Shown piece after piece: positions 61,801 to 63,901 of a DNA stretch of 64,000 nucleotides; position 1 is the stretch's first letter; each line of letters starts with the position of its first letter. A program made the position numbers and the translations under genes. The DNA comes from Candidatus Rifleibacteriota bacterium (GTDB taxonomy: Bacteria > Muiribacteriota > Ozemobacteria > Ozemobacterales > Ozemobacteraceae): positions 3,414 to 67,413 of the forward strand of contig JAQVCG010000004.1 of assembly GCA_028689875.1 (NCBI GenBank), read 5' to 3'. The notes beneath the pieces are model-generated. The model had not been told where the DNA came from. It did not search any database and saw nothing but the letters and a program-made list of their open reading frames with translations.

Positions 61801-62299
61801 CGAAGACGCAGTTATTAAAGCCAAAACGGGCAATCGTGCTTACGAAAAAATCGATTCTGCAATCGAAATACCCGTTACCGCATATTTACCGAAAACTTAT
61901 ATTCCCGAAGAAGAAACGCGTGTTGAGCTTTATTCAAGGTTGGCGCGCTGCAAAGATCTCGAACTTTTGTCAGAAATTAAAGACGAGTGCGAAGACAGAT
62001 TCGGGCCGCTTCCTTCTGAAGCTATGGCATTATATGCGATCAGCCGGTTGAGAGTTCTTGCGGTAAACGCTAATGTGGTCAAGGTTACAAGGGTTATCAA
62101 TCACTTGCGATTCGAATTTTCGAAAAACAAACTCCCCGATATCGGCAGAGTCTTCTCGAGCGGTTCAGACATTTTGTCGGGCGTATATTTCGACAGCTTC
62201 GATCCCAACGCCATCAATTTGAAAATCGACGACAACACCCCCGAAATTATTTTCGACAACGCCGCAAATCTTCTAACTATCTTCGCCGATTCCTTTTAA
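58889..62299 (+). CDS. mfd: transcription-repair coupling factor
   Basis: '[21 protein letters not shown]' (Walker A), '[12 protein letters not shown]', 'LTATPIPRT', 'QLRGRVGRS'. UvrB-homology N-terminus. I prefer the ATG at 58889 (MLFKNINF...) over the track's TTG at 58829. Confidence 0.9.
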   Translation: [1136 protein letters not shown]

Positions 62300-63205
62300 G
62301 CCGGGCGGCGTTTTCCAAGTTTGCTCAGACGCTACCCAGTGAGTTTTATACTGCTTGTTTTGCATAACCGCGGTGTATGGTTGTTCTAAAAAAGCTCTAA
62401 TTGTGTCAATAACTGTTTTGAAATTGTCGACTTCAATTTTAACTTTTTTTGAAAAAGCTTTCCACTTCTTCTGCATAGCTTCATTAGTATAAAAACTCAT
62501 TATTTGTTCAAAATGCTCATTCGTAAATGAATGATTTCTATTTTTGAAAGTATTTTTTAAAGCTTTAACTAAAATATTACCTTCAAAATTGAAATGGTTT
62601 GCAAGGTAGTAAATATCATAATAATCTTTCATTCGGCTTGAAAATTCCATTAGTGTAAGTATTGCATCTAGCTTTTCTGCAATAGTGGTTTCAATTGAAT
62701 AAGCATTTATGTTTGGGGCTGTAAAATCTTCTAGTTGAGTGGGAACTTTTTGCTTTTGTTTTCGTGGAATAATAATATCACCCACTCCGATGTCAATTTT
62801 AAGTTGAATACGAGTATTTTTTATTCGTGCGGTAATGCTTGCTGAAACTCCTGTATATTTTTTGGTAACAGTAATTGGTTCTACACTTTTCAGCTCAAAT
62901 GTTATAAAGTCATTTTCTGATTCACAATTAATGATTTCATCCAATGTTTCTTTTAATTGCTGTGGTGTGTTAGGTAGCTTGAGTAGCAAAAAATCTATGT
63001 CTATAGTTACTCGACTCTCAAAATTTGTAATAGCATAAATAAGCAAGCCGCCTTTTAATACAAAATTATCCGCGTATTTTGACTTTTCTAGGCGACGTAA
63101 AAATTCTTCCTGACAGAAAAGTTGCAGGCATAGCTGAAAGCTTCTCCCGCTTTGCGTTGCTTTGTTCTTTAAACGTGCAAGGACTGACGCTGCTATGTCA
63201 GGCAT
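62273..63205 (-). CDS. abiEii: AbiEii/AbiGii-family nucleotidyltransferase toxin (type IV TA / abortive infection)
   Basis: 310 aa. 'VLARLKNKATQSGRSFQLCLQLFCQEEFLRRLEKSKYADNFVLKGGLLI' is the typical AbiEii (DUF1814) N-terminus. Overlaps abiEi by 8 nt. Confidence 0.8.
   Translation of the reverse strand: MPDIAASVLARLKNKATQSGRSFQLCLQLFCQEEFLRRLEKSKYADNFVLKGGLLIYAITNFESRVTIDIDFLLLKLPNTPQQLKETLDEIINCESENDFITFELKSVEPITVTKKYTGVSASITARIKNTRIQLKIDIGVGDIIIPRKQKQKVPTQLEDFTAPNINAYSIETTIAEKLDAILTLMEFSSRMKDYYDIYYLANHFNFEGNILVKALKNTFKNRNHSFTNEHFEQIMSFYTNEAMQKKWKAFSKKVKIEVDNFKTVIDTIRAFLEQPYTAVMQNKQYKTHWVASEQTWKTPPGLKGIGEDS
62289..62308 (+). repeat. 20-bp direct repeat, left copy (ATTCCTTTTAAGCCGGGCGG)
   Basis: Identical to 63882-63901. 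Contains the last codons and the TAA stop of mfd. On the other strand it encodes part of the AbiEii C-terminus. Confidence 0.9.
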
Positions 63206-63803
63206 TTAGTAAAACCTCAATCAATTCGTTAAGTTTTTTGTATACTTTCAGGCTTTTGGCATACTTTGAAAGGTTGATTAGGTTTTTATTGCTGTCAGCA
63301 ACATAAGCATTGAGTGCTTTGCTAAATGTCTCATTGTCCATTTTTGAGCGGTATTTAAAGCAATCACATATTGTTCTTTCACGATCGTATATTGAAAGCC
63401 TAACACCGTTGAAGTCGACAGCAGTTTTGCCTATGTTCAGCCATTTATCTTGAATGTAATAAACTTTTAAAAACAAAGTGTCTATTTTAAGTTTTGTTCT
63501 TGCTATGTCTCTTGGAACAGCTACTGCCCATGCTCTTGGTGCTAAATCGCTATACCCGTAATAAAAGAGCGCTGATTCCACACACACAATGCTCTCCGGA
63601 ATCAGTGTTGCGATTAAATATTCTTCGCTTATATTGTCTGACGTTTCAAGTTGGTAATAGCCATGACGAAGACGCCTGATTAGCCCTGCATTACACATGT
63701 TTGCAACATCATAATTAGAGAGCCCTTCAGCTTTAAAAGCGGATGTTTTGGCTATGCCGCCATTTTTCAAAATTATTTCTTTAATAAAATCAAATTTTGT
63801 CAT
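63198..63803 (-). CDS. abiEi: AbiEi-family antitoxin / transcriptional regulator
   Basis: 201 aa. 'IILKNGGIAKTSAFKAEGLSNYDVANMCNAGLIRRLRHGYYQL' is the winged-helix AbiEi N-terminal domain. Confidence 0.75.
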   Translation of the reverse strand: MTKFDFIKEIILKNGGIAKTSAFKAEGLSNYDVANMCNAGLIRRLRHGYYQLETSDNISEEYLIATLIPESIVCVESALFYYGYSDLAPRAWAVAVPRDIARTKLKIDTLFLKVYYIQDKWLNIGKTAVDFNGVRLSIYDRERTICDCFKYRSKMDNETFSKALNAYVADSNKNLINLSKYAKSLKVYKKLNELIEVLLNA

Positions 63804-63881
63804 TTTATTACCAATTTTTAATACACAATTTTGTTTATTTGTGTGTTAAAAATATTATAGCCCACATTTTATATATTTGCA

Positions 63882-63901
63882 ATTCCTTTTAAGCCGGGCG
63901 G
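63882..63901 (+). repeat. 20-bp direct repeat, right copy (ATTCCTTTTAAGCCGGGCGG)
   Basis: Identical to 62289-62308. Intergenic, 78 nt upstream of the abiEi start. Confidence 0.9.

Follow-up and report, generated by a model that had tools for sequence, protein, structure and literature searches.

An operon without mobility genes at the end of mfd

How do small defence and toxin-antitoxin modules reach positions in the core genome without mobile-element genes? The process is poorly understood, and the question is raised by a 64,000-nt stretch of DNA from a Candidatus Rifleibacteriota bacterium (GenBank assembly GCA_028689875.1, contig JAQVCG010000004.1, positions 3,414 to 67,413 of the forward strand), which was analysed over its whole length and is called the window here. 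Near its right end, an AbiE toxin-antitoxin operon, abiEi-abiEii, lies between mfd, the gene of the transcription-repair coupling factor, and a membrane gene resembling those of energy-coupling factor (ECF) transporter S components. We consider it probable that this operon came from a low-GC donor, was inserted recently between the two genes with an exact 20-bp duplication, and is still polymorphic.

The operon is bounded by a perfect direct repeat at the mfd stop codon, as the preliminary description of the window had reported. The 20-mer ATTCCTTTTAAGCCGGGCGG is present exactly twice in the window, at 62289-62308 (left copy) and 63882-63901 (right copy), with a spacing of 1593 bp; a third copy was not found there with up to three mismatches allowed, and 0 of 100 dinucleotide-preserving shuffles gave any match to the 20-mer. 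Since the bases flanking the two copies are unlike, the repeat is exactly 20 bp long. The mfd gene (58829..62299, plus strand, 1156 aa) encodes the Pfam domains UvrB_inter, CarD_TRCF_RID, DEAD, Helicase_C and TRCF, and its 3’ end (..FADSF-TAA) falls within the left copy, which takes in the last three codons and the TAA. The duplicated target is made up of the last 11 nt of mfd, TAA included, and a 9-nt native spacer, and the right copy is the second occurrence of this target. The 20-mer is non-palindromic and contains a GC-rich 9-mer, GCCGGGCGG, which has a GC content of 100%, unlike the AT-rich insert. We tried this 9-mer as a dispersed element and rejected it, as it is not a dispersed motif.

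The inserted segment between the two copies (62309..63881, minus strand, 1573 bp) has a GC content of 0.336, compared with 0.465 for mfd and 0.42 for the window, which bears out an earlier impression, gained by eye, that the cassette is more AT-rich than mfd. Its only genes are abiEi and abiEii, both on the minus strand and accompanied by their promoter; the open reading frames (ORFs) confirm this content and the 8-nt overlap between the two genes. Their GC content at third codon positions (GC3) is 0.27-0.33, that of mfd 0.49. The insert is free of spare DNA. It is limited at one end by the −35 box of the predicted promoter and at the other by the codon after the conserved W-K of the toxin, so that 0 bp of insert lie downstream of the toxin ORF, and the 78 bp on the other side are filled by promoter and operator. 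The boundary sequences are CGTTTT.. and ..TTTGCA, and no inverted repeat pairs both ends of 62309-63881. Rfam and tRNA scans found no known RNA or tRNA at the locus. The cassette had been described as lacking an integrase, and this holds for the insert and beyond it, as no integrase, transposase or recombinase was found in the 53 of 56 major non-nested ORFs of the window that were scanned.

On the right side, the ECF-S-like gene (63902..64000, minus strand; 32 codons and the stop, of a whole protein of 164 aa) is cut by the end of the window. It is convergent with mfd and has a homologue in a sister species. Its stop codon (TTA on the plus strand, 63902-63904) directly abuts the right copy, and the translation after that copy, IPVLGVQFLTSALGIVLAEVLHRHIPKLHTNQ*, is identical to the C-terminus of P0257, the orthologue of this gene in the window species. 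The sequence right of 63901 had been taken for a native spacer resembling a dispersed repeat; it has no significant match elsewhere in the window and encodes the 3’ end of a conserved gene, and we therefore rejected the dispersed repeat. Neither host gene is damaged by the insertion.

Filled and empty alleles within one species

The empty allele was found through P0257. L031, a Logan contig from run SRR10769903, corresponds in reverse complement to window positions 62100-62308 followed without a gap by 63902-64000; over these 308 nt (209 + 99) there are 0 mismatches, and the 20-mer is present once. The preliminary description had proposed, as a check, to look in the mfd 3’ region of related genomes for an empty site holding the 20-mer only once, and L031 carries such a site. 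L031 is a conspecific empty site, and the species is polymorphic for the cassette. Because the empty site is identical and holds a single 20-mer, all 20 nt, including GCCGGGCGG, are native target. The locus provides an unusually clean before/after pair within one species.

The filled allele might instead be an assembly artefact, a chimera in which an AT-rich foreign segment was joined to the host through the shared 20-mer. The contig comes from a metagenome-assembled genome, the composition of the segment is foreign, and the repeat length equals k−1 for k = 21, the smallest k in common metagenome assemblers. The same allele was, on the other side, reproduced in L030, a Logan contig from run SRR22315505 and an independent k = 31 assembly, which is exactly window 62279-63894 and spans 10 nt of mfd, the left copy, the whole cassette and 13 nt of the right copy. 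A 20-bp repeat cannot create joins at k = 31, which makes an artefact very unlikely, and a false loop would require the 20-mer at both ends of the foreign DNA. The AbiEi and AbiEii proteins are recorded only for the contig of the window and for L030, which also speaks against the artefact. We regard this explanation as scarcely credible. At its left, L030 begins with precisely the first 31-mer that only the filled junction has, made up of 10 nt of mfd, the 20-mer and 1 nt of cassette sequence. Such a start is suggestive of a branch to an empty allele present in that sample too; at the right, where the contig ends after 13 nt of the repeat, a matching signature is missing.

The cassette is also missing from the sister species: in 10 contigs from different samples, out of 24 read, mfd is followed after 1 nt by a convergent 163-aa gene, and none of the 10 carries abiE. 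Nucleotide identity to the window is 83-86% on both sides of the site, where the sister species reads GACTCGTTTTAA-A-TCA and matches only the mfd part of the 20-mer (9 of 11 nt). The window Mfd is 92% identical to P0001, a Riflebacteria Mfd from the sister species, and the 90% Mfd cluster consists of sister-species members except for the window’s own protein. Exact-protein look-ups gave no match for the window AbiEii, for Mfd with the 1156-aa start, or for the outer-membrane protein encoded upstream. Since the sister species lacks the cassette, the operon is not vertically inherited across the lineage; synteny and vertical inheritance of the two genes had been named as a possible refutation of an insertion. 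In more distant Riflebacteria (Mfd 66-68% identical), abiE is absent from the mfd 3’ end and the neighbouring genes differ. The idea that the mfd 3’ end is a recurrent hotspot was rejected on these grounds, and our literature search returned no mention of integration at the end of mfd.

Apart from the abiE cassette, mfd shows a second difference from the sister species. Relative to sister-species contig L002, the window has an insertion of ~317 bp at 58511-58827, directly upstream of the mfd start codon, so that mfd carries a lineage-specific insertion at both ends. The upstream insertion is flanked by an imperfect ~12-nt duplication of the mfd start region (TTGCAAAAAAAT-like), which is A/T-rich and thus weak evidence. 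Pieces of it recur in two other intergenic regions (58602-58628 resembles 17831-17857 at 96%, and 58758-58776 matches 21621-21639 at 100%), and are probably the dispersed intergenic repeat that the preliminary description had in mind. The element, which may be MITE-like or a regulatory motif, has no Rfam match.

A predicted toxin tail donated by the junction

The toxin gene abiEii (62273..63205, minus strand, 310 aa) has no stop codon of its own in the insert, and its reading frame continues through the left repeat into the antisense strand of mfd, which supply codons 300-310 (PPGLKGIGEDS) and the stop. The resulting convergent overlap with mfd is 27 nt long, in agreement with the earlier observation that the toxin ORF reads across the junction. 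Family homology of AbiEii ends at W297-K298, and most homologues are 298 aa long, some of them with short unrelated tails. Because the conserved region of the homologues stops at W297 plus one residue, the last 11 residues of AbiEii are derived from the junction; with no stop in the insert, it was the duplicated target and antisense mfd that gave the toxin its 11-codon tail and its stop. The locus is thus a case in which an insertion junction donates a new C-terminus and stop to a toxin and creates a convergent overlap with a housekeeping gene. No terminator was found between abiEii and mfd, so that transcripts of abiE probably extend, in antisense, into the 3’ end of mfd.

An apparently functional AbiE operon

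The identity of the cassette as AbiE, claimed earlier from the letters and translations, is backed by strong Pfam, PADLOC and PDB assignments. AbiEii, a DUF1814 nucleotidyltransferase, matches PF08843 (1.5e-47), PADLOC AbiEii (1.5e-95) and the Streptococcus agalactiae toxin in PDB entry 9hlo_B (1e-30). The antitoxin and autorepressor gene abiEi (63198..63803, minus strand, 201 aa), which encodes a winged helix-turn-helix (wHTH) and a C-terminal domain, matches PF13338 (AbiEi_4) and, over its full length, PADLOC AbiEi (5.9e-61); residues 1-199 match 9hlo_A and 6y8q_A at 1e-20. The operon is bicistronic, with the antitoxin gene immediately upstream and an overlap of 8 nt (ATGCCTGA).

Motifs I, II, III and IV of DUF1814 toxins have been defined (PMC3985639). 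In the window AbiEii, the catalytic signature hGG-x15-DhD is intact (G52, G53, R65, D69 and D71), and K178 and the motif IV sequence KDYYD (K193-D197) are conserved. In the alignment with 9hlo_B, which has an offset of +2, T67 aligns with T65 of S. agalactiae and is invariant among 14 aligned sequences. T65 is the phosphoacceptor in the antitoxin-induced auto-phosphorylation of the S. agalactiae toxin (bioRxiv 10.64898/2026.01.19.700257). Neutralisation in that species proceeds via induced auto-phosphorylation of this threonine, and the same route might be open to the window pair through T67.

Upstream of abiEi, a promoter is predicted at 63854..63882 (minus strand), with a −35 box TTGCAA (63882-63877), a 17-nt spacer and a −10 box TATAAT (63859-63854); this is a match to a sigma-70-like consensus only. 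The right repeat contributes the first base of the predicted −35 box. An inverted repeat (63814..63853, minus strand), with 15-nt arms that are 93% complementary and a 10-nt gap, lies in the interval from the −10 box to the ATG of abiEi. In the systems studied, AbiEi binds inverted repeats in its own promoter (PMC3985639, PMC7319586), and the inverted repeat here is a probable AbiEi operator. The S. agalactiae abiE promoter has two inverted repeats, whereas the window abiE has one repeat with 15-nt arms.

From its genes, motifs and control region, abiEi-abiEii is apparently a complete and functional AbiE toxin-antitoxin and abortive-infection operon, and the module itself is an ordinary new member of a known family. 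As in other members, AbiEi would repress the operon at the inverted repeat and neutralise AbiEii; upon loss of AbiEi, or when a phage perturbs the balance, the nucleotidyltransferase toxin would arrest growth and bring about abortive infection. Toxicity, antitoxicity and defence are accordingly those that the family would lead one to expect of this operon.

The closest AbiEii relatives in a collection of 5.8 billion proteins are 64-68% identical, and the named ones belong to Clostridium and Lachnospiraceae; relatives also occur on viral contigs. A search of plasmid DNA with the cassette returned only a weak 91-nt match in Clostridium estertheticum. The low GC and GC3 of the cassette agree with a donor of the clostridial type. 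In the closest Firmicutes relatives, the genes directly after AbiE belong to restriction-modification systems that are type I (HsdM/HsdS) or type III-like (N6_N4_Mtase with DEAD/ResIII), and in L027 and L028 AbiE is ~2 kb from a tyrosine integrase (regions L014, 1813-4627; L024-L028, 3912-6897; L027/L028, 1-770). These relatives are located in ordinary defence islands. One AbiEii homologue, P0122 (345 aa), has an internal tandem duplication of ~47 residues over motifs III and IV, with TINTYSIETTVAEKIDAILSLMEFSSRMKDYYDIYYLANKFDFDG occurring twice.

How the cassette may have entered

We lean slightly towards a one-off insertion that involved no recombinase gene and duplicated its target, and favour it over att recombination. 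The 1573-bp unit probably entered the 9-nt gap between the convergent stop codons in one lineage of the Candidatus Riflebacteria species; in the model that we favour, the unit would be a linear fragment captured at a 20-nt staggered break, which would then be filled in on both sides. After integration, the module would protect by abortive infection. Its loss through the 20-bp repeats, by which the empty site would be restored precisely, would be selected against by toxin-antitoxin addiction. Target duplication explains why the whole 20-mer, including the 9-mer of 100% GC, is lineage-specific host sequence. The recombinase searches are in line with it as well, since the empty allele L031 shows no recombinase domain in the 1.4 kb on its right side. 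There is published precedent for defence or addiction genes that were inserted without a transposase and with target duplication at the 3’ ends of genes (PMC2853133).

Several points weigh against this picture. The duplication of 20 bp is shorter than the 30-bp criterion for a long target duplication and falls within the usual range of att cores. The insert runs tightly from the −35 box to the last codon, which is unlikely for a random fragment and hints at defined ends. The empty site is known from one short contig, with 209 + 99 nt of flank, and the zero divergence of L031 bounds the age of the insertion only loosely. A conspecific empty allele may reflect either insertion or precise excision through the repeats, and the integration is seen only through its end product.

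The defined ends are what site-specific recombination in trans would produce. In that case, a circle of 1593 bp carrying the 20-mer as attP would have been recombined into an identical attB where mfd ends, by a tyrosine integrase whose gene lies in another part of the genome or on a helper element, in the manner of a ‘hitcher’ cassette or of a minimal att-bounded element resembling a CIME (cis-mobilizable element); the circle would have the junction ..TTTGCA-20mer-CGTTTTCC.., that is ..ATATATTTGCA-ATTCCTTTTAAGCCGGGCGG-CGTTTTCCAAG.. A length of 20 bp is typical of an att core, and integrases typically target the 3’ ends of conserved genes, where integration leaves the gene intact. Both apply here, and the two repeats match the single attB-like 20-mer of the empty site L031. 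In the circle, the toxin ORF would close on its own stop four codons past the core (..GIANI*), and the left end of L030 is as expected if both alleles co-exist in one sample. Related Firmicutes operons reside in islands near tyrosine integrases (L027, L028), and AbiE is already known on integrative conjugative elements (PMC11062541).

Against these stand the following observations. First, the scanned ORFs of the window and the neighbourhood of the site yielded no integrase. Second, there is no room for arm-type sites, with 0 bp on the toxin side and the 78 bp on the other side taken up by promoter and operator. Third, the 20-mer does not have the architecture of a recombinase core, as no inverted half-sites were seen on reading the sequence, and reading of the locus likewise showed no dif/Xer site. 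Fourth, the core is species-specific, the sister species having ACTCGTTTTAA-A instead; as it is lineage-specific and partly of 100% GC, an AT-rich foreign element would have needed an identical attP. Fifth, the 20-mer adjoins no other element. Exact scans of genome contigs (596 Gbp), JGI metagenomes and IMG/VR with ATTCCTTTTAAGCCGGGCGG yielded only one chance match, inside a peptidase gene of a Deltaproteobacteria metagenome-assembled genome (the same contig in two collections), roughly as many as would be expected of any 20-mer in 596 Gbp, and no other cassette flanked by it was found in these genome, metagenome and viral collections. Finally, flanking direct repeats of at least 13 nt were found at none of 13 homologous AbiE loci (L013, L014, L019-L029), and on this basis a conserved AbiE cassette with att sites was rejected; the neighbours of these 13 loci are type I or III restriction-modification systems, in some cases together with an integrase. 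The preliminary description had inclined towards an att core, with mobilisation in trans as one possible route, and had proposed a search for further cassettes flanked by the 20-mer; the database scans and the homologous loci do not support the att core, and we hold att recombination in trans to be a rather unlikely, though serious, alternative.

The preliminary description had also raised the possibility of a decayed island, in which a larger genomic island with an integrase entered at the mfd 3’ end and was later reduced to abiE and its two att sites. Direct repeats at a gene 3’ end without an integrase fit the definition of CIMEs, the att-flanked remnants of integrative conjugative or mobilizable elements that have no integration and transfer genes (PMC5704250), and AbiE relatives occur in integrase-bearing defence islands with type I or type III restriction-modification systems. 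The insert, on the other hand, holds no remnants or pseudogenes and not one spare base between repeats and operon, so the deletions would have to have stopped exactly at the −35 box and at the last toxin codon. Moreover, stepwise decay would have had little time, as the two alleles, filled and empty, have flanks that are 100% identical. We therefore judge a decayed island very improbable.

The tight ends may also be read in another way, which we consider improbable but less so than the decayed island: the 1573-bp abiE unit could be a discrete mobile cassette with defined ends that enters chromosomes by a 20-nt staggered duplication without a recombinase of its own. The route could be provided by a repair or integration activity of the host, by an enzyme acting in trans that requires neither terminal inverted repeats nor arm sites, or by an activity of the AbiE proteins themselves. 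If true, a recombinase-less abiE cassette would represent a general way for small defence and addiction modules into tiny gaps between convergent core genes.

Two further classes of element were considered and rejected. A DNA transposon or miniature inverted-repeat transposable element does not fit the absence of terminal inverted repeats or a duplication of 20 bp, as opposed to <10-14 bp. An integron gene cassette would have an attC palindrome at the 3’ end of its ORF, a GTTRRRY core at its boundaries, and an array or intI in the vicinity, whereas the insert has 0 bp past the toxin ORF and the boundaries CGTTTT../..TTTGCA; its only inverted repeat lies between promoter and ATG, no attC was seen on reading the locus sequence, and no integrase was found in the window. 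A literature search on 20-bp target duplications returned nothing relevant, only papers on CRISPR guides.

Other features of the window

Three regions away from the locus deserve mention. At 24320-29876, a cluster of three genes encodes a DUF2760 protein, an HSP70-like protein and an HSP70-like protein with DUF3731 (‘DnaK-related’); the cluster begins in a kilobase of low GC content (0.33 at 24001-25000). A lone DUF2971 gene at 40065-40934 lies ~1.3 kb from a tRNA-Gln gene (38736-38808), and no integrase was seen there. A 300-nt direct repeat of 73% identity (51335-51634 and 53769-54068) is located in the neighbouring large minus-strand ORFs 50569-52197 and 53003-54814, of which the latter is OmpA-like in the sister species; the repeat probably reflects paralogous domains.

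Comparison with known systems

[quoted passage not shown] The window operon resembles AbiE of S. agalactiae and Lactococcus (AbiGi/AbiGii) in the overlapping bicistron, the COG5340-type wHTH antitoxin, the DUF1814 toxin with motifs I, II and IV and the threonine equivalent to T65, and the promoter with an inverted repeat. It differs from known AbiE in three respects. First, its proteins are at most 68% identical to any known protein. Second, the toxin has an 11-residue tail and stop donated by the junction, with a 27-nt antisense overlap with mfd. Third, it resides in the chromosome of a Riflebacteria host and not on a plasmid, an integrative conjugative element or a prophage.

In the length of its duplication, the locus is comparable to IS1630, a Mycoplasma fermentans element of the IS30 family whose target duplications measure 19-26 bp (cited in PMC2853133); a duplication of ~20 bp is unusually long for transposition. 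IS1630 has a transposase, terminal inverted repeats and inverted-repeat targets, whereas the abiE locus has none of these and a non-palindromic target.

Described CIMEs are far larger than the 1.6-kb abiE insert. Common to the two are direct repeats located at a conserved gene’s 3’ end, the lack of an internal integrase, and cargo that is accessory only. Unlike a CIME, the abiE locus has no tandem or neighbouring integrative element, no mobility remnants and no core shared with the elements found, and the flanks of the cassette are host genes syntenic with the sister species, without tandem accretion.

The closest parallel in structure is with restriction-modification complexes, whose insertion with long target duplication has been described (Nobusato et al. 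2000; Furuta, Abe and Kobayashi 2010, PMC2853133). In both cases a compact defence or addiction unit of <20 kb, with no mobility gene or terminal inverted repeats and with a GC content below that of the genome, is flanked by a duplicated unique target that an empty site reveals. The repeats overlap the 3’ end of a host gene, as in the Haemophilus influenzae examples, and gene fusion at the junction has been reported there too. The differences lie in the length of the duplication, which is 20 bp here, whereas >30 bp was required there to exclude att-type repeats (45 to ~420 bp were observed), and in the cargo, which here is a toxin-antitoxin and Abi module without a DNA-cleaving activity that could make the break. 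On our reading, a pattern of insertion with target duplication that has so far been documented for restriction-modification genes would extend to an Abi/toxin-antitoxin module, and the locus offers a concrete substrate for testing integration, excision, and the balance of addiction against repeat-mediated loss.

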